Of a DNA stretch of 12,972 nucleotides, positions 3,061 through 11,131 are shown one piece after another. The position numbers and the translations under genes were made by a program. This stretch comes from Candidatus Hermodarchaeum yapensis. GTDB lineage: Archaea > Asgardarchaeota > Hermodarchaeia > Hermodarchaeales > Hermodarchaeaceae. The notes under the pieces were generated by a model. It worked only from the letters and a program-made list of their open reading frames with translations. It made no database searches and was not told where the DNA came from. The DNA lies in NCBI GenBank assembly GCA_016840405.1, contig JAEOSK010000050.1:1-12972 (forward strand), written 5' to 3'. Position 1 is the stretch's first letter. Every line of letters starts with the position of its first letter.

Positions 3061-4269
3061 ATGAGCCACTTTGTTGATGAAGATGAAATACGACGGCTGA
3101 GCCGACGCATTGCGGAGGAATTTGAAGCAACCTATGGCACCTTGGATGAAAAAGTTGCTCGGGTTCCTGATGATGCGGCATTGGCCATTGCAGACGAATG
3201 TTGTGTTCATCTCGAAGTTGCTCGAGTAGCGTACCGCGTTATGCTAGATGGAACAATACCTGATCCTAAAGCATCCTGCAAAATCTTAATGCGCGAATTT
3301 GACCGTCGCGCCAAACAGGGCAGCCCCGTTCCAGAAGTTGATACCTACCAGCGTGAAGTAGCAATCAACGAAGGAAATTGGATCGAATATCTCTATGGGC
3401 AATTGAACAAAGTGCTTCTTGGAGATTTACGAAACCTTGCCAATCTTGAAAGAACAATTGCTGACGAAATTGAACCGGCTAATGAGCAGGTCATCGCCGT
3501 TGTTGCACAACGACGAAAAGTCGTTGAAATATATTTCACATCATTACTTCAACGCTGGTTGAATGACCATCGAGGAGCTAATATAGGTCATGCTGTTCGT
3601 GCCATCACCGGAGGATTAACTGGATCCTTTGAATCAGATATTGACGATGCAATCAATGGCGCACGTGCTGCATTACTCATTAAACTCCGACGATATGAGC
3701 AATTTCTAAGCGTTGAGGACGAAGAAGAGGAAGAGTCCCGATTAATGGATAAAATCCTGCGTGAGATTCGACTGCTTCTCAAAGAAGTCCAAGGTCCTCT
3801 TGAAGAAGCCTCTCTCCACACTGCAGGTGAGATTTTAATTGAAGCAGCGCCTCCACCCCCCGAGTCCCTGGATGAGAAACCAAAATTTGGATTTGTGTCT
3901 GCACCTTTCCCAACGAGACCCCAAATGGGGCCTCCTATGCAAACTCCACTGGATTATCTTGAAAGAGATGTCTGGTTAGCAGTAATGAAACCCCCTGACG
4001 AAAGAACTGCGTTCCTCCGTGAAAAAATCTCAACGGTAACAGAGAACCTGATTGAGCAGGGTACTCCGCTAGATAAGATTGGAACGACAATAATCTTCGA
4101 TTTGGATAGCCGCTTTTCATGGAAGCGCTCTAGAAAAACGGTTGTCCGTAGAGAATTACGTGAAATTCGAGATTCAGCGGGTGAAGATTATCGCGGACAG
4201 ATCGAAAATTATGTCTTAGAAAATATCCTAGCAAAAATTCCCGAATTACGTTCAAAACCCAACGAATAA
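3061..4269 (+). CDS. Hypothetical protein, largely alpha-helical, with acidic and Pro-rich segments
   Basis: 402-aa ORF with a strong SD. No catalytic motif recognised. Contains EDEEEEES, APPPPE and PFPTRPQMGPP stretches. Confidence 0.85.
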   Translation: MSHFVDEDEIRRLSRRIAEEFEATYGTLDEKVARVPDDAALAIADECCVHLEVARVAYRVMLDGTIPDPKASCKILMREFDRRAKQGSPVPEVDTYQREVAINEGNWIEYLYGQLNKVLLGDLRNLANLERTIADEIEPANEQVIAVVAQRRKVVEIYFTSLLQRWLNDHRGANIGHAVRAITGGLTGSFESDIDDAINGARAALLIKLRRYEQFLSVEDEEEEESRLMDKILREIRLLLKEVQGPLEEASLHTAGEILIEAAPPPPESLDEKPKFGFVSAPFPTRPQMGPPMQTPLDYLERDVWLAVMKPPDERTAFLREKISTVTENLIEQGTPLDKIGTTIIFDLDSRFSWKRSRKTVVRRELREIRDSAGEDYRGQIENYVLENILAKIPELRSKPNE

Positions 4270-4297: not shown

Positions 4298-5068
4298 ATG
4301 ATTGAACAAAACCCGCCACTGCTTTGGGTTCTAGACTACGTGATACCTGACTTTCAATTACTTGGTGAAAAAATTACTTTGAGTGGTGAGCTAATCATCG
4401 CGTCTCGTCAACTATTCAGCTTTCTTCAAGAGGAAATTGTTCGGTCAGCATTTATTGGTCCAGGTGCGGTCAAGGGGCAAGTTTTGATAAAAGGAAAACC
4501 GGTGGATGTCGAATATCTTGTTGGCGCAGTGATTTTTGATCCTACCCAAATGCGTCCTCGTGAGCCTATTCCTATCCTTGATATTCTTAATCCGGAAATT
4601 TTGGATCCGTTAGAACAAGCCTCGGAGGAGCAGGTGCAAGAAATTATCCGCACATTAATGATTAAGAAGGGCTCTGTTTCGGATTCAGGTCAAATCTTGA
4701 AAATAACTACTGAAGGTGGGTTACCTAAAACACTCATCGCTGAACAACACATGGTGGCCAAGAACATCTCTTTTGTATCAGGGATGAAAAAAGCACGATT
4801 TCTCTTGGGTGGTCAAAAGAATCGTTTGTATACGCCCTTTAAAGATGGATTGCAGCGGAATCGATTTAGTGATCCGAGTAGAATTTGGACTTTTCGCATT
4901 GATAATAGGGAATTTGAAGCCTTTTCGCCACCAAAATTCAATGAATGGATTATCATAGAGATGCAAACTATTCCTACCGAAGCCTCAAGTTCGAGTGAAG
5001 TTGTGGAATCGGAGTACAATTCAATCCTAACATATCTACTTGGGAATCAGGAGTCCTTTATCTTCTAA
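4298..5068 (+). CDS. Hypothetical protein
   Basis: 256-aa ORF starting 28 nt after the previous gene on the same strand (likely operon). No family recognised. Confidence 0.75.
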   Translation: MIEQNPPLLWVLDYVIPDFQLLGEKITLSGELIIASRQLFSFLQEEIVRSAFIGPGAVKGQVLIKGKPVDVEYLVGAVIFDPTQMRPREPIPILDILNPEILDPLEQASEEQVQEIIRTLMIKKGSVSDSGQILKITTEGGLPKTLIAEQHMVAKNISFVSGMKKARFLLGGQKNRLYTPFKDGLQRNRFSDPSRIWTFRIDNREFEAFSPPKFNEWIIIEMQTIPTEASSSSEVVESEYNSILTYLLGNQESFIF

Positions 5069-5082
5069 GGGATGCATCGCCT

Positions 5083-7653
5083 CTAAGATGGGTGTTCGAT
5101 GCGTTCCATTACTTGGCTCGCATGTTCTGCCAATTCATATCGACCTATAACTTCGGCAACTCGCTGAATGCCCTGAAGAATGTGCACCTGGTTGTCGAGG
5201 AACCCAAAGATATCTCCTGGATAAACAAAGAGCTCATATTCCTGTAGAAAAGTTGAATTGATTTGAGACGGCGTGAGTCCTTTATATCGAAGCTCCAAAA
5301 CAGATCGAGAAACATTCCAAATTCCACAATCACAGAATGGATTTTCTTTACATCGACAACTAAAGAAGTCTATTGTCCATTTGCTAAATTGATTTAGAAC
5401 CCACCGTGGCAGTCGGGCTATCCGTCTACCCCGTCTAGTACTCATTAAATCAAGAACTGCACCCGCAAATAAACGGGTTGCAAACCGGGTTCGAAGTGCC
5501 CGTTCAATTTCACTTTGTAAACGTGGAGAAAGATACACGTTCCGGATGGGTTCAAGCCTAACCGAGAGCTCATCAGCCTTGTCATAAGAATACTCTTGAA
5601 TCGCTGCAACGTTAGATGCTGAAAAATACGAAATTGTAGCGGCACGTCCTAATTCTGTAGGCATCATATCCTGCCCACTTTGGACTGCGAGTCCATGGCG
5701 CTTTAAGAATCGCATTCCCTCATCAAAACTCACCGTCCGTGATAAAAGCCGTTGATACGAATTTTCAAGACGTTTTCGAGATATTTGATCAAAACACGAT
5801 AAAGTAGCTAGCAACTGATCAACAGATTGCTCAAACGTCGCTTCAGGTCGAACTGCTTCTATGGGGTTGCTTAATAAATCGAGTGCGACCTCCTCTTCTG
5901 TCTTACGTTCATCACCAAAATATCGACGACCAATTTCTGCAAGCAAGACAGCTTTTCCACTATCATGCTTACCTAATCGCCCCGCTCGTCCCAACATCTG
6001 GGTTAATTCACCCACGGTGAGAGTTTTGGTTCCCATCATTAAGCTTTGGAAAATCACTGTGCTTGCTGGAAAATCCACACCTGCGGCGAGGGCTGCGGTG
6101 GTTACAACTGCTGCGATTTTTCCTGCTGCGAACGTTTCTTCGATTTTATGGCGTTGAGGATAAGTCATTCCCGCATGATAGGCACGTGCTGAGATTCTCT
6201 GTTTCTGTAATTCATTGGCAATGGAATGCGTGCTTCGGCGTGAGTTCGTAAAAATAATAGTTTGACCCCGAAAACCAAAGGAACTCTTCTGTTGATATTC
6301 GGCTCTACTGATATCGGCGATCATTCGAAGTTTGTCTGGCTCCGTTAGAACCATTATCAAATGACGCTGTAGGGGTACTGGTCGACCGGCTAAAATGACT
6401 GGAGTTAATTGCAGGTCGTGGGCTAATTCTTTTGGATTTCCTACTGTTGCTGACAAAGCAACTAGCTGGGATTTGGGGAAAAGGGTACGAAGGCGGGTGA
6501 TTAATCCATCTAATTCTGGTCCCCGATCCTCGTCAGCTACCATTTGAATTTCGTCGACGACAACTACTCCCACTTCGGCAAATTTTTCAGCCTTCCCGGA
6601 TCTGAGAAGATAATCAAATCCTTCATAACTCGCTACAATGATATCTGCATCAGCAACATCATCATCAACGATAACGAGGGCTTCTTCTCCCACATCTATT
6701 GAACTCATACCCACACGAATGGCTACCCGTAATCCAAGGGCTTCGTATTTTTCACGATACTCATGGTACTTCTGGTTTGCCAAGGCTACTAGTGGTGAAA
6801 GGTAGATGTAGGTTTTCCCTTCCATTGCTGTCTTCAATCCAGCCAGCTCACCTACCAAGGATTTTCCGCTAGTTGTATCTGAGACAGTGAGTAAGGATTT
6901 TCCTTCCAATAGCCCAGCGTCGATGGCTTTCACTTGGATGGGTAGGAGATACTCAATTCCATATTTCTGAAGAACATCAATAAACTCAGAAGGGATTGAT
7001 AGTGTGTTTATCGCAATTTTTTCTTCAGGTTCTTTGACAGCTTGGACTTGGTCATATAGTGTCATAGCTGGATTTTGACTGGGACGAAACTGGGAAGAAA
7101 GAAATGATGCTACTTTCTCAACTGATCGTAACCGTCGTAACATCGTCTCCAAACTACCATACGCCTTCTTAGATACTTCAATATCCATGGCTTGAAGACG
7201 ATTTCCTAACTCCCGTGAAGCACACTTGTAGCACACTGGTTGACCTTCTAGCTGATAGACCTGTTGGCGATTGAGCAGGGTCAACCGACTATCTGCAATA
7301 CATGAACTGCATGCCCTGACGATAACCGGATCCTTCACACTGAAATCCCGCAGCATCCCTTTTAATTCCGTTAGAAAGGGAAATCGTGGCTGTCTCGGAA
7401 TCGCAATATATTCAGCATTTCTTACCCAATTCACGAATGTGCGAGGATCAATCGGGCGAACCCCACCCTTCTGTATTAACCATAACTTGGCAGGACGTAA
7501 CCGTCCTTCTTCCATGCGAAACTGTATTCGTGCCCGTAAAATTGGAATAGACGCCCGTTTGGGTCGAAAGACTACACAAAATGCTGATAACTCCCGCTTT
7601 TTCTCAGGAAAAAGAGCTAAGCCAAACGGAGGTTTTAATGGACGCATTCCCAA
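5083..7653 (-). CDS. Archaea-specific Ski2-like SF2 helicase (ASH-Ski2 / DUF5814-containing)
   Basis: Q motif LLPIQ, Walker A TTSGKS, PLVALANQK, DEIQ, SAT, YHAGM, LAAGVDFPA, QMLGRAGR. It has N-terminal CxxC...CxxC and C-terminal CxCxxxPFCxC clusters; about 856 aa. The start may be ATG 7647. Confidence 0.9.
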   Translation of the reverse strand: MGMRPLKPPFGLALFPEKKRELSAFCVVFRPKRASIPILRARIQFRMEEGRLRPAKLWLIQKGGVRPIDPRTFVNWVRNAEYIAIPRQPRFPFLTELKGMLRDFSVKDPVIVRACSSCIADSRLTLLNRQQVYQLEGQPVCYKCASRELGNRLQAMDIEVSKKAYGSLETMLRRLRSVEKVASFLSSQFRPSQNPAMTLYDQVQAVKEPEEKIAINTLSIPSEFIDVLQKYGIEYLLPIQVKAIDAGLLEGKSLLTVSDTTSGKSLVGELAGLKTAMEGKTYIYLSPLVALANQKYHEYREKYEALGLRVAIRVGMSSIDVGEEALVIVDDDVADADIIVASYEGFDYLLRSGKAEKFAEVGVVVVDEIQMVADEDRGPELDGLITRLRTLFPKSQLVALSATVGNPKELAHDLQLTPVILAGRPVPLQRHLIMVLTEPDKLRMIADISRAEYQQKSSFGFRGQTIIFTNSRRSTHSIANELQKQRISARAYHAGMTYPQRHKIEETFAAGKIAAVVTTAALAAGVDFPASTVIFQSLMMGTKTLTVGELTQMLGRAGRLGKHDSGKAVLLAEIGRRYFGDERKTEEEVALDLLSNPIEAVRPEATFEQSVDQLLATLSCFDQISRKRLENSYQRLLSRTVSFDEGMRFLKRHGLAVQSGQDMMPTELGRAATISYFSASNVAAIQEYSYDKADELSVRLEPIRNVYLSPRLQSEIERALRTRFATRLFAGAVLDLMSTRRGRRIARLPRWVLNQFSKWTIDFFSCRCKENPFCDCGIWNVSRSVLELRYKGLTPSQINSTFLQEYELFVYPGDIFGFLDNQVHILQGIQRVAEVIGRYELAEHASQVMERIEHPS

Positions 7654-7736: not shown

Positions 7737-8429
7737 ATGCGCCAAATCGTTATCTTCCCGGGCATCTTGTCACTCATTTTGAGCAAGGCTGCTCGCGCGG
7801 GTCGTACCGAAATTGGAGGCTTTCTCATTGGCAAAATAAAGCGTAACCAATTGATTATTACAAGAGCTACTTTTCCCCGGCAAATTGGAACAAGTACACA
7901 TGTTACAATCAATGATGTTGACATGGCGCTTCTTGCTGAAGAGCTTGCTGAACGAGGGGCGGGCGAAGTAATCATTGGTTGGCATCATACGCACCCTGGG
8001 ATGGGTGTGTTTATGTCCGGAACTGATGTTTCCACACAACGTCGTTATCAAGCCTTTTTCCCTGAAGCCGTCGCTATGGTAATGGACCCAATCAAATTTT
8101 CAGAAACACTGAATCTTGAAGACTTAGATCTTAAAATTTATCGTGTCAAAAATGGGAAATCTGAAGCACTTGATTATGTGTATGCACATGACCCAGCAAA
8201 AATAATCCCTGATCTTTTCGAAATAATGTTAACGCTTGAAGAACCTGCTCATATGATATTTGAAGACACCTGGTTTGAGAAAATGCTTCGAGAGGTCTTA
8301 GGAGAGCCGATAACCGCACCAGAATTTACCCAAGGACTAGGTAATTTCGTAGAAGCGGCTGTTGCCTTTGGCACTGTTATATTCCTTTGTATTTTCATCG
8401 CCATTTCACTAATGGGACTATTCATCTAA
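7737..8429 (+). CDS. JAMM/MPN+ (Mov34/Rpn11-like) metalloprotease with C-terminal transmembrane helix
   Basis: EIGGFLIG (catalytic Glu) and GWHHTHPGMGVFMSGTD (H-x-H-x7-S-x2-D), then AMVMDP. The protein ends in the hydrophobic AAVAFGTVIFLCIFIAISLMGLFI. Confidence 0.9.
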   Translation: MRQIVIFPGILSLILSKAARAGRTEIGGFLIGKIKRNQLIITRATFPRQIGTSTHVTINDVDMALLAEELAERGAGEVIIGWHHTHPGMGVFMSGTDVSTQRRYQAFFPEAVAMVMDPIKFSETLNLEDLDLKIYRVKNGKSEALDYVYAHDPAKIIPDLFEIMLTLEEPAHMIFEDTWFEKMLREVLGEPITAPEFTQGLGNFVEAAVAFGTVIFLCIFIAISLMGLFI

Positions 8430-8520: not shown

Positions 8521-9210
8521 TTACTCGGGTTCATCGAAGCCAAGGGCTTTCAAGGCTGCGAGAATTGCCTCCTTGTCATCAACAGAAACGTCGTCGACTT
8601 CTGAACTTGCCTCTGAGACGCTAACGGTTTCTAATCCTGGTTCCTCAACAGGAGCAATGGTTGGGGTCGTTGGTTCAGTTTCTGCCATGATTTCTTCAGC
8701 AGTCTCTGGTGCCACTTCGGGCGTAACGGGCTCTTCGGCAATTTCAGATTCAGTTGCCTCTTCGACTTCGGTAGTGGCTTCTGTTGCTGCAATAGGCATC
8801 TTACGGAATCCCATAAGCTGTTCAGGTTCAAGGGGATGGGTTTCCATGATCTTAGTTACTTTCGTTGCATAGATTTTCATTAGTCCAATGTAATAGCCAA
8901 GGCGAATTTGATCTCTACTTGCTCCAACTAAGAGCGTTTCAGGGGTCCCGCGCATAATTATCGTAAAACCCTTATTACCCCTGAGTATTACTTCGGAGAG
9001 AGTTCCTTGGCTGAGTTGCCGCAGAGTTTCTTCTCCAACATTGACAAGTGTGGCGGTTGCAGCAGAGAAGATGTCGGAATCCACATCACCACTAACCGCA
9101 CATGCCAGACGAATACCCTCCCGGGTAACAACAGCAAGGGCTTCAAGCCCCGTTGATTGTTCGATTCGTCGCATTAAATCCTGTAAATCCTTAAAGGGAG
9201 TCTCAGCCAT
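8521..9210 (-). CDS. Roadblock/LC7 (MglB-like) domain protein with long acidic C-terminal extension
   Basis: GLEALAVVTREGIRLA...FSAATATL...LSEVILRGNKGFTII...LLVGA...LGYY fits the Roadblock pattern. It is followed by about 85 E/T/P/A-rich residues and a terminal amphipathic helix. ATG 9210 is preferred to GTG 9222. Confidence 0.88.
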   Translation of the reverse strand: MAETPFKDLQDLMRRIEQSTGLEALAVVTREGIRLACAVSGDVDSDIFSAATATLVNVGEETLRQLSQGTLSEVILRGNKGFTIIMRGTPETLLVGASRDQIRLGYYIGLMKIYATKVTKIMETHPLEPEQLMGFRKMPIAATEATTEVEEATESEIAEEPVTPEVAPETAEEIMAETEPTTPTIAPVEEPGLETVSVSEASSEVDDVSVDDKEAILAALKALGFDEPE

Positions 9211-9385
9211 CGTCCAATACACTCTCAGAACGTGTCTAGTGTTTTCTTCTCTTCGTTTCCTATATCAAGGTTGCTGTAGCACTCACTTAGTTTTTTGGAA
9301 CTTTGCGAGGGTCGAAAACCGCTATTGAAAAAAGATTACTTTCAGTTTCCTCTACCAGCATAGTGTTTGCTTGAACGTATTGGGG

Positions 9386-9413: not shown

Positions 9414-10526
9414 GTGGGACAATCAACTATGACAGCCTCTGTCGACGCGCTCTTTAATTTGAACTATCTGCCAGCGAGGCTTTTGCATCGGGATCAAGAA
9501 CTAGCCACTCTCTCAAACCTTTTTTTCCAAGAAGACACTTCCACACAAGCACTAAACATACTAGTCCATGGAAGCTTTGGCATTGGACGAACAACACTTC
9601 TCCGATACTTCGGGTTACACGAATTGACAACTTTTTATCGTCCATTTATTCCCTTTCACCATAAACACGCACATGAAATCGTAACTGACACGCTACTTGC
9701 TTTATCCCCTTCTCCAAACATATCAACCTCCATACCTGAACAATGGACTTTAATCAAACGATTAATTCGCAAAGCTGAAACACCTCTGGTGTTTACTCTT
9801 GATGATGTTAACTTCCAAACCACTGAAATTTATGGAAAATTTCTTCAGCTCTGCAAGGAAAATGGCGTTTCTTCGATGGCAACCGCTCCGCGATACTTTC
9901 CGCGCCAACTCAAATCTGAAACATCACGTTATCTTGACGTTTCCCTTGAATTGGAACCCTTTAGTGATCAACAATTACTTGATATTGTCAGACACCGCGT
10001 TGCAGAAATATACACTGAGCCCGTGCCAGCAGAAGTAACACAATTCATGGCGGATTTGATTTGCATGCTAGATTTCCAACGACCTGCGACCGCTGTGGAC
10101 TTGTTACAAAATCTACACCCTTTAATCTCCCAGACCAACGAAATTACTGCTGAGAAAATTCGCAAAGCCTGTCTAGCTTCCAGAACATTGCATTATGATT
10201 TTTGGAGCGGACATCTCTCTAGTTTAACGGAATTAGATGCCACTACTGTTCTTCTGCTTCAGGCTGTGGGACAATACTTCATTAATCATCCTAGACAAAT
10301 TTACGTAACAAAACCAAGTTTATTCAGACAATATCAACAAGTTTCTGAAGGAATTGGACTCCCGCCAACCGCTTCACAATTTTCCCGAGCTCTAAATATG
10401 TTACTCTTTCAAGATCTCCTTCTCCGCTCACGTTACACGTCAGAAAATTACTTTACGCTACTTCCTGCAGAAGGTTACTTAGAGATTGTTGAGCTTCTTC
10501 TTGGAGATTACCAACTAGAACAGTAG
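9414..10526 (+). CDS. Cdc6/Orc1-family AAA+ / winged-helix protein with degenerate ATPase motifs
   Basis: N-terminal LFNLNYLPARLLHRDQEL (Cdc6-like), Walker A GSFGIGRT, Walker B FTLDDV, EPFSDQQLLDIVRHRV (cf. PY..EL.DIL..R), and a C-terminal WH-like LFRQYQQVSEGIG...FSRALNML. Confidence 0.8.
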   Translation: MGQSTMTASVDALFNLNYLPARLLHRDQELATLSNLFFQEDTSTQALNILVHGSFGIGRTTLLRYFGLHELTTFYRPFIPFHHKHAHEIVTDTLLALSPSPNISTSIPEQWTLIKRLIRKAETPLVFTLDDVNFQTTEIYGKFLQLCKENGVSSMATAPRYFPRQLKSETSRYLDVSLELEPFSDQQLLDIVRHRVAEIYTEPVPAEVTQFMADLICMLDFQRPATAVDLLQNLHPLISQTNEITAEKIRKACLASRTLHYDFWSGHLSSLTELDATTVLLLQAVGQYFINHPRQIYVTKPSLFRQYQQVSEGIGLPPTASQFSRALNMLLFQDLLLRSRYTSENYFTLLPAEGYLEIVELLLGDYQLEQ

Positions 10527-10546: not shown

Positions 10547-11131
10547 TTACACACCTGTTTGTTGAGTAACTATTACACGGGCAAGAAGCCGTGCTATTCG
10601 AATCGGTTCTGGCACTCCTCCAAAACGGGTTAAACGTTTTATGACTCCCTTAACAGTATCCCAATCGCAGCCAATGAATTGAACAAAAACAGTAGACTTG
10701 GTATTCAATGTTAAGGGTTGAATAGGTCCATTTCGGCAGGCTATCTCCCATCGTGTTTTCCAATCCGAAGGGAATGTGGATTCAAGGTGAGTCTGTAAAT
10801 CCTCATGTGGTTCCTTTGTGATGCTAATTACTGGGAGTTTGGTCTTTTGGTGTATCCTCGGCAGATCAACGATATTGTATCCTGCAATTACACTACCATG
10901 TAGTAGAATGCCATTTAGATCATCTCTACTCAAATGGCGAACCATCGCAATTATGGCATCTGATGCATCCATTCCGCGAACGGTTGTCTCTCCATAGATC
11001 ATTCCATCAATAATCAAATCAGCTCGCATCACCACTCCGCCAAGGATAGATTGCTTTGCTCCAGATACCCCGCTTTCGGCTATCCCCAAAAATCGGGCTG
11101 CTGGTTTTTGGGGTGAAGATTTCGTGGTCAA
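10547..11131 (-). CDS. DUF99 family protein (endonuclease V-like / endonuclease dU fold)
   Basis: LGIAES, GVVMRADLIIDG, TVRGMDASDAI, IAGYNIVD, LPVISI, VPEPIRIARLLA. Confidence 0.88.
   Translation of the reverse strand: MTTKSSPQKPAARFLGIAESGVSGAKQSILGGVVMRADLIIDGMIYGETTVRGMDASDAIIAMVRHLSRDDLNGILLHGSVIAGYNIVDLPRIHQKTKLPVISITKEPHEDLQTHLESTFPSDWKTRWEIACRNGPIQPLTLNTKSTVFVQFIGCDWDTVKGVIKRLTRFGGVPEPIRIARLLARVIVTQQTGV

Follow-up and report, generated by a model that had tools for sequence, protein, structure and literature searches.

Among JAMM enzymes, Rpn11 and CSN5 each pair with an inactive MPN subunit and work as heterodimers within PCI complexes, and AMSH is a soluble enzyme that is recruited through its MIT domain and through binding of STAM, and that carries an Ins-2 zinc site. 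Known archaeal JAMM enzymes include desampylases, and in CsRpn11 they also include a proven deubiquitinase that cuts its cognate ubiquitin precursor and ubiquitin conjugates after the GG, but not SAMP precursors; the C-terminal helices of CsRpn11 are dispensable for catalysis (PMC6043591). Here, we describe a JAMM gene with protein product P0001 in a window of 12,972 bases, which is the entire contig C70 of an Asgard metagenome-assembled genome (G000; 2.7 Mb, 86% complete). The NCBI labels of near-identical proteins disagree (Thor-, Odin-, Hod- and Promethearchaeota). We lean towards P0001 being a membrane-tethered Rpn11-like deubiquitinase, and ubiquitin would then probably be taken off its targets on the cytoplasmic side of the cell membrane. 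The gene is composed as follows.

7737..8429, + strand: predicted tail-anchored JAMM gene encoding P0001, 230 amino acids (open reading frame list and translation; open frame with an ATG start)
7737..8186, + strand: MPN+/JAMM catalytic core, residues 1-150 (Pfam JAB, 53.8 bits; CsRpn11 alignment)
7809..7811, + strand: codon of the catalytic Glu25 (E-IGGF), invariant in alignment A2 and nearly so in A1
7986..8027, + strand: zinc-binding motif H84-T-H86-PGMGVFM-S94-GT-D97 (translation), with H84, H86, S94 and D97 invariant in A1 and A2
8187..8354, + strand: linker, residues 151-206, conserved within the own family, with the own-family motif FEDTWFEKMLR
8355..8426, + strand: predicted transmembrane tail anchor, residues 207-230 (hydropathy 2.5-2.65, conservation), with the stop codon directly after it (8427-8429)

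The catalytic domain is recognized by the Pfam JAB profile (PF01398) over residues 2-109, at 53.8 bits against a cut-off of 22.5 bits, and more weakly by Prok-JAB (32.3 bits). An earlier note, made from the DNA alone, had claimed an intact JAMM motif, and it is indeed present: GWHHTHPGMGVFMSGTD reads H84-x-H86-x7-S94-x2-D97, and with the upstream E25 the motif is complete. These catalytic residues are invariant or nearly so across both alignments. The boundary of the core at residue 150 was set by the active CsRpn11 truncation delta149-202 (PMC6043591). In a phmmer comparison with the PDB sequences (56 matches at E up to 0.01), the best match is CsRpn11 (6FJU; E 1.2e-30), covering residues 4-174 with one one-residue gap and nearly gapless through Ins-1. 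Rpn11 (~1e-15), AMSH (6e-15), CSN5 (1e-13) and BRCC36 (1e-5) are also matched, and JAMM1 desampylases are absent from the 56 matches. With a Caldarchaeum orthologue of CsRpn11, P0001 shares 38% identity over 164 amino acids. An AMSH-type second zinc site in Ins-2 is missing from P0001, as there is no insertion relative to CsRpn11 and the sole Cys (C218) lies inside the membrane tail. Similarly, no Pfam match to the MIT domain occurs in P0001, though MIT is found in Vps4 of the same genome. P0001 is a eukaryote-type and apparently active JAMM. Its linker, put at about 60 amino acids in the earlier note, spans roughly residues 150-206 (~55 amino acids); in the alignment, its first part corresponds to the helical C-terminal region of CsRpn11, and both length and sequence vary between Asgard lineages.

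The second defining element of P0001 is its C-terminus, where A207-I230 forms a stretch of 24 uncharged, hydrophobic residues up to the stop codon, just as had been read from the sequence initially. Hydropathy, calculated as the Kyte-Doolittle mean over 19-residue windows, is at least 2.26 from window 204 on and peaks at 2.65 for residues 212-230. Windows above 1.9 are confined to residues 201-230, which leaves a single segment with nothing C-terminal of it; the transmembrane call is based on this hydropathy and on conservation. A milder hydrophobic stretch (mean 1.55) is present at residues 4-22. It is not a signal peptide, because it aligns with the start of the MPN fold, i.e., the first strand and helix, of the soluble CsRpn11, and the claim that P0001 lacks an N-terminal signal peptide thus stands. 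A sorting signal of the PGF-CTERM/archaeosortase type was rejected as well, as P0001 has no signal peptide, no such motif and no basic end. The architecture is that of a tail-anchored protein: one segment at the C-terminus, none elsewhere and no signal peptide. Since this segment is the last part to leave the ribosome, membrane insertion would have to be post-translational, probably by the Get3/ArsA-type ATPase that is encoded in the genome (C10:10857-11759, 341-amino-acid frame, 317 bits). Conservation of the tail, which the earlier note had singled out as a check, is high: the tail is found in 51 of 53 database homologues, at identities down to 30%, and in all 19 genomes of the own family, where the 18 other genomes each hold a full-length orthologue. 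Compared with the two nearest orthologues, the tail codons have a nonsynonymous rate (dN) of 0 and a synonymous rate (dS) of 0.19-0.34, and the tail is evidently under purifying selection. A frameshift artefact is refuted by the same three observations.

The genome around P0001 was examined for the genes that the earlier note had suggested looking for, and ubiquitin, E1, E2, RING, ESCRT-I/II, Vps4 and a Get3-type ATPase were all found. The end of contig C19 (L015:8603-14330) carries Vps4, Vps25, Vps22/36, a 97-amino-acid unknown protein, Vps28, UEV-Vps23, a 179-amino-acid unknown protein, RING and ubiquitin, and the start of contig C40 (L016:3-2252) carries E2, an E1 with a fused C-terminal Ubl (ubiquitin-like) domain, and Yip1. 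These two ends almost certainly join into one ESCRT-RING-ubiquitin-E2-E1 cluster, because a complete genome of another family (f3; L064; family numbers are ours) has the same genes in one continuous run. The cluster has no protease gene in this genome, and the P0001 gene is the only PF01398 JAB in the whole-genome search. Two Prok-JAB genes are located elsewhere, on C30 and C41. The former is JAMM1-like, with PfJAMM1 as best PDB match (4e-13), and is a desampylase candidate that can cover desampylation. The latter (L017:5263-7633) overlaps with a ThiF-type E1 gene on one strand, with a transglutaminase-like gene adjoining on the opposite strand, an arrangement that corresponds to a bacterial-style E1-JAB pair. 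In total, four ThiF-family E1-like genes score over the Pfam cut-off. The ubiquitin of this genome (L015:14094-14330) ends in RTEGG with a stop codon immediately after. It is encoded in its mature form and therefore requires no precursor processing in this genome.

The JAMM domain with its complete motif, the conservation of the tail, the kinship with CsRpn11, the genes present in the genome and the phyletic pattern described below are observed, whereas catalytic activity, ubiquitin as substrate, membrane topology, the Get3 route and any ESCRT connection are inferred. In this view, P0001 would belong to the Rpn11-like (CsRpn11) type of archaeal enzymes and act as a zinc isopeptidase, with its catalytic domain in the cytoplasm and its C-terminal helix holding the enzyme at the inner membrane face. 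The most likely substrate would be the eukaryote-like ubiquitin of the organism. Because this ubiquitin ends with GG and a stop codon, the job of P0001 would be removal of ubiquitin from conjugates rather than precursor processing. The anchor would confine the activity to membrane proteins or membrane-bound complexes, where P0001 may recycle ubiquitin and reverse or edit the tags attached by the E1-E2-RING cascade, whose genes adjoin those of ESCRT. In lineages with one to ten residues after the GG of ubiquitin, precursor processing is a possible second role. A more specific version, which we consider doubtful, would give the anchored JAMM, as an ancestral Asgard component, the AMSH/Doa4 step in the ubiquitin-dependent sorting of cargo directly at the membrane, where it would strip ubiquitin from membrane proteins captured by UEV-Vps23/ESCRT before scission or extraction. 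Such an ESCRT connection of P0001 would fit the gene content, and gene linkage lends it no support.

To map the spread of the anchored form, 400 Asgard genomes were searched for JAMM homologues. All genomes tested from families f4, f5, f6, f7, f8, f9, f12, f14, f15, f16, f26, f27 and f33 have a best homologue with the transmembrane tail; of two f13 genomes tested, one does. The tail-anchored JAMM thereby occurs in at least 14 Asgard families beyond its own, with named records for Odin-, Baldr-, Jord-, Frey-, Hel- and Heimdallarchaeota. Two more contigs with the anchored form bear the labels Bathyarchaeia and Deferrimicrobium, possibly through misbinning. Only soluble paralogues are present in complete or near-complete genomes of f10, f17, f19, f20 (Loki type), f3 and f28, and two f31 genomes (97-98% complete) contain no JAMM of the Rpn11-like kind. 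Genomes of the own family, Odin, Baldr, f13 and f26 each yield one Rpn11-like match, namely the anchored gene. Towards the phylogeny that the earlier note had asked for, a quick tree of 76 catalytic cores was built, in which one CSN5-like representative stands for the eukaryotic paralogues. P0001 groups with tail-anchored forms of Jord, Odin, Baldr, Hel and some Heimdall genomes, in a clade that also encloses a few soluble members. The CsRpn11 type, the Loki E1/E2-linked type and the small ESCRT-cluster type all lie outside this clade, and the anchored forms of Heimdall f6-f9 branch separately. The deep nodes are weak and the outgroup branch is very long, so no conclusion on the ancestry of the anchor is drawn from the tree. 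The predicted tail-anchored JAMM is an old, widespread Asgard orthologue group and not peculiar to this organism.

Other JAMM forms were encountered in the same survey. Very small JAMM genes (111-143 amino acids) lie inside the ESCRT-ubiquitin cluster of f3 and f28 (L064:4884-5396 in G004; L062:5002-5430 in G307), and these two families are without a tail-anchored form. A soluble JAMM of 316 amino acids is encoded ~3 kb from the Vps4 and Vps25 genes in an f11 genome (L057:4893-5867; G080). Among the 150 nearest metagenomic JAMM representatives, very roughly a third (not counted; within P0117-P0203) show a different membrane-spanning layout, with a hydrophobic segment at ~170-280 followed by a long, often Pro/Ala-rich C-terminal part; these proteins are uncharacterised and probably bacterial. 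Membrane attachment of JAMMs as such is thus not rare, since mid-protein segments are common in these representatives.

At the level of families, the presence of the anchored JAMM follows that of ubiquitin. All Asgard families with an anchored JAMM have ubiquitin, and the families without ubiquitin (f31, f25, f30, f2, f23 and mostly f24) are those without Rpn11-like JAMMs. The C-terminal ends of ubiquitin were compared as well (L212-L222, L062, L064, L079-L097). No residues follow the GG in the own family, Baldr, f4, f12 and f33, one to three follow in Heimdall, Jord, f3 and f28, four to ten in Odin, and zero to ~15 in Aigarchaeota. The idea that lineages with only the anchored form always encode mature ubiquitin is broken by the Odin extensions.

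The gene neighbourhood was compared across ~35 loci with a tail-anchored JAMM from a dozen lineages. In the window, the following genes surround the JAMM gene.

3061..4269, + strand: gene X (P0204, 402 amino acids, function unknown), first in the recurrent X-Y-JAMM order
4298..5068, + strand: gene Y (P0205, 256 amino acids, function unknown), second in the X-Y-JAMM order
5083..7653, - strand: Hel308-like helicase with DUF5814, 856 amino acids (Pfam DEAD, Helicase_C, DUF5814), between Y and the JAMM gene
8521-9222, - strand: Roadblock/LC7 protein, with a C-terminal half of 130 amino acids without assignment
9414-10526, + strand: divergent Orc1/Cdc6-like ATPase
10547-11131, - strand: endonuclease dU

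In 15 of the 35 loci, gene X precedes the anchored JAMM and shares its strand; these loci belong to Odin, Jord/Frey, Baldr, f26 and the own family. The gap between Y and the JAMM gene measures 0-200 bp in Odin, Jord/Frey and f26; one gene intervenes in Baldr, and the helicase does so in the own family only. The X-Y-JAMM order appears ancestral in the lineage of P0001. X and Y always occur as a pair, and Y is found without an adjacent JAMM in 83 of the 89 pooled genomes of f31-f33 and also in f3 and f28. In f30 and f31, which have no ubiquitin, the order is X-Y-helicase on one strand, the helicase being inverted in the own family. The X-Y module does not depend on ubiquitin, and its association with the JAMM, though real, is not an obligatory one. 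Neither X nor Y has a match in Pfam, NCBIfam or PDB-profile searches, and their ESM Atlas scores of 0.82 are at chance level. The structure model of Y improved from a predicted local distance difference test (pLDDT) score of 46.7 with a 10-sequence alignment to 72.5 with a 33-sequence alignment. A Foldseek search of the latter, moderately confident model against the PDB gave nothing better than E 0.2, and a wide VIA search matched no solved fold, with a best Z of 3.1 to Sm-like barrels. Y was also considered as an inactive MPN partner and rejected (hhalign probability of 0.9% against the JAMM alignment). The helicase comprises an N-terminal region of 210 amino acids without assignment and has DUF5814 at its C-terminal end. 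Synteny with the JAMM gene extends downstream to the Roadblock/LC7, Orc1/Cdc6-like and endonuclease dU genes in the own family; in Baldr it is looser. The anchored JAMMs of Heimdall and Hel have neighbours unrelated to X-Y. The gene directly upstream of the Heimdall-type anchored JAMMs (L049:5526-6560 and relatives; alignment A6; 345-380 amino acids) has no Pfam match and shows an invariant DFHQSN ... IDP pattern that recalls kinase-like phosphotransferases; it was tried as a relative of X or Y and found to be unrelated.

Several of these observations weigh against a membrane-tethered deubiquitinase. Not a single ubiquitin, E1, E2, RING or ESCRT gene lies beside a tail-anchored JAMM in the ~35 loci, and a profile search found no ubiquitin-system gene anywhere on the 12,972-base contig. 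In complete genomes, the anchored gene is separated from ubiquitin by 59 kb to more than 800 kb, and the JAMMs that are operon-linked are soluble paralogues. Jord, Hel and Heimdall hold both anchored and operon-linked JAMMs, so the anchored one need not be the ubiquitin protease there. The sole recurrent neighbours of the anchored JAMM, X and Y, are also present in ubiquitin-free families. The correlation between ubiquitin and Rpn11-like JAMMs comes from related genomes and thus from few independent events, which makes the phyletic pattern supportive only, and the status of P0001 as only JAB is provisional in a genome that is 86% complete. The proposal of the earlier note, a deubiquitinase acting at the membrane face in protein sorting or quality control, survives in part: the eukaryote-type JAMM, the conserved tail and CsRpn11 as nearest relative agree with the enzyme and its location, and the ~35 loci provide no linkage to ESCRT sorting or quality control.

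What the anchor is for bears on the first of the other explanations, in which P0001 is a general-purpose deubiquitinase and the membrane only stores the enzyme, shields cytosolic conjugates from it or serves precursor processing where ubiquitin has a C-terminal extension, with no role in sorting or with ESCRT. The missing ESCRT gene linkage is in line with this, as is Odin, where the anchored JAMM is the single Rpn11-like match and faces a ubiquitin with four to ten residues to be removed. Yet, ubiquitin ends at the GG in this genome and in Baldr, f4, f12 and f33, and the strict conservation of the anchor across classes argues that location matters; we regard a general-purpose enzyme as unlikely. 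About equally improbable is that the anchored JAMM acts with the X-Y module on a substrate other than ubiquitin, for instance by cleaving or maturing X, Y or a membrane partner, so that its likeness to deubiquitinases would concern chemistry only. The compact one-strand arrangement in Odin, Jord/Frey and f26, retained with one inserted gene in Baldr and the own family, speaks for it, and X and Y belong to no known family or fold. Nonetheless, X-Y stands without an adjacent JAMM in f31, f3 and f28, where a helicase or other genes come next, and the neighbours of the Heimdall and Hel anchored JAMMs are unrelated to it. Moreover, the own family and Baldr share synteny of SAM synthetase, endonuclease dU, Roadblock and Orc1-like genes too, and the gene order may therefore be partly inherited.

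A membrane-bound protease for a Ubl other than ubiquitin (SAMP, Urm1, ThiS/MoaD type), comparable to haloarchaeal JAMM1, could draw on the four ThiF-family E1-like genes of this genome and on the desampylases known among archaeal JAMM enzymes (PMC6043591). We find it highly unlikely, given that JAMM1 structures are missing from the PDB matches of P0001 and the C30 gene is the JAMM1-like one instead, that CsRpn11, the nearest relative, does not cut SAMP precursors (PMC6043591), and that the phyletic pattern tracks ubiquitin. Scarcely credible, finally, is an inactive or scaffold MPN protein, or a tail that is an annotation artefact: the catalytic residues are all invariant, and the tail shows conservation, selection and a conserved stop codon at its end.

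In the literature that we searched, no description was found of this layout, whether among Asgard deubiquitinases, tail- or membrane-anchored JAMMs, or prokaryotic JAB domains with a transmembrane segment, and a tail-anchored JAMM is not described there. The Asgard ubiquitin-ESCRT literature searched tracks E1, E2, E3, UEV-Vps23 and ubiquitin, with the deubiquitinase only as a domain match. New are the anchored JAMM across Asgard archaea, its lack of operon linkage, its phyletic pattern with ubiquitin and the X-Y neighbourhood, which brings to light two conserved unknown genes that travel with it. Three kinds of Asgard JAMMs that are usually lumped can now be separated: tail-anchored and unlinked, operon-linked and soluble, and small inside the ESCRT cluster. 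Asgard archaea are the closest known relatives of eukaryotes, and their ubiquitin and ESCRT genes inform on the origin of ubiquitin-dependent membrane sorting. If the one Rpn11-type protease of several Asgard classes does sit in the membrane, deubiquitination would be spatially restricted, which would suggest that membrane proteins are prominent among the targets of ubiquitin. If the cargo-sorting version were true as well, reversible ubiquitin tagging of membrane proteins would predate eukaryotic endomembranes, and lipid anchoring would later have been replaced by adaptor domains. With one small enzyme, one cognate ubiquitin and one anchor, P0001 offers a simple test object.

Ubc6, the E2 of yeast endoplasmic-reticulum-associated degradation (ERAD), is tail-anchored in the endoplasmic reticulum and is among the proteins inserted by Get3. 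Tail-anchored proteins of the Ubc6 type share the predicted architecture of P0001, with one helix at the extreme C-terminus, no signal peptide and a cytosolic enzymatic domain. Rpn11/PSMD14 and CSN5 have the same catalytic motif and belong, like P0001, to PF01398 rather than to Prok-JAB only; P0001 differs from both by its predicted membrane anchor, and the search of its genome (86% complete) revealed no second PF01398 gene that could encode an inactive partner of the Rpn8/CSN6 type. AMSH/STAMBP and AMSH-LP (E 6e-15) resemble P0001 as JAMM isopeptidases for a membrane site in a cell with ESCRT-I, ESCRT-II and Vps4. AMSH reaches the membrane by adaptors, whereas P0001 would be attached by a lipid-embedded helix, with no ESCRT linkage found. 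The JAMM1 desampylases (HvJAMM1, PfJAMM1; 5LDA/5LD9) are likewise archaeal stand-alone JAMM isopeptidases for Ubl removal, but they are soluble, directed at SAMPs and from a different subfamily, to which the C30 gene of this genome corresponds. The closest parallel is CsRpn11 of Candidatus Caldiarchaeum subterraneum (6FJU, 6FJV, 6FNN, 6FNO; PMC6043591), a stand-alone archaeal MPN+ enzyme of ~200 amino acids with the same motif, an Ins-1 of equal size and no Ins-2. CsRpn11 is soluble and encoded within a Ub-E2-E1-RING operon (L079-L100), while P0001 has a transmembrane tail and is unlinked to ubiquitin genes; in the tree, its clade stands at sister level, apart from the CsRpn11 group and not nested within it. 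The ubiquitin tails of the two systems are near-identical (RTxGG), reading LITRTEGG in this genome and LITRTVGG in Aigarchaeota.

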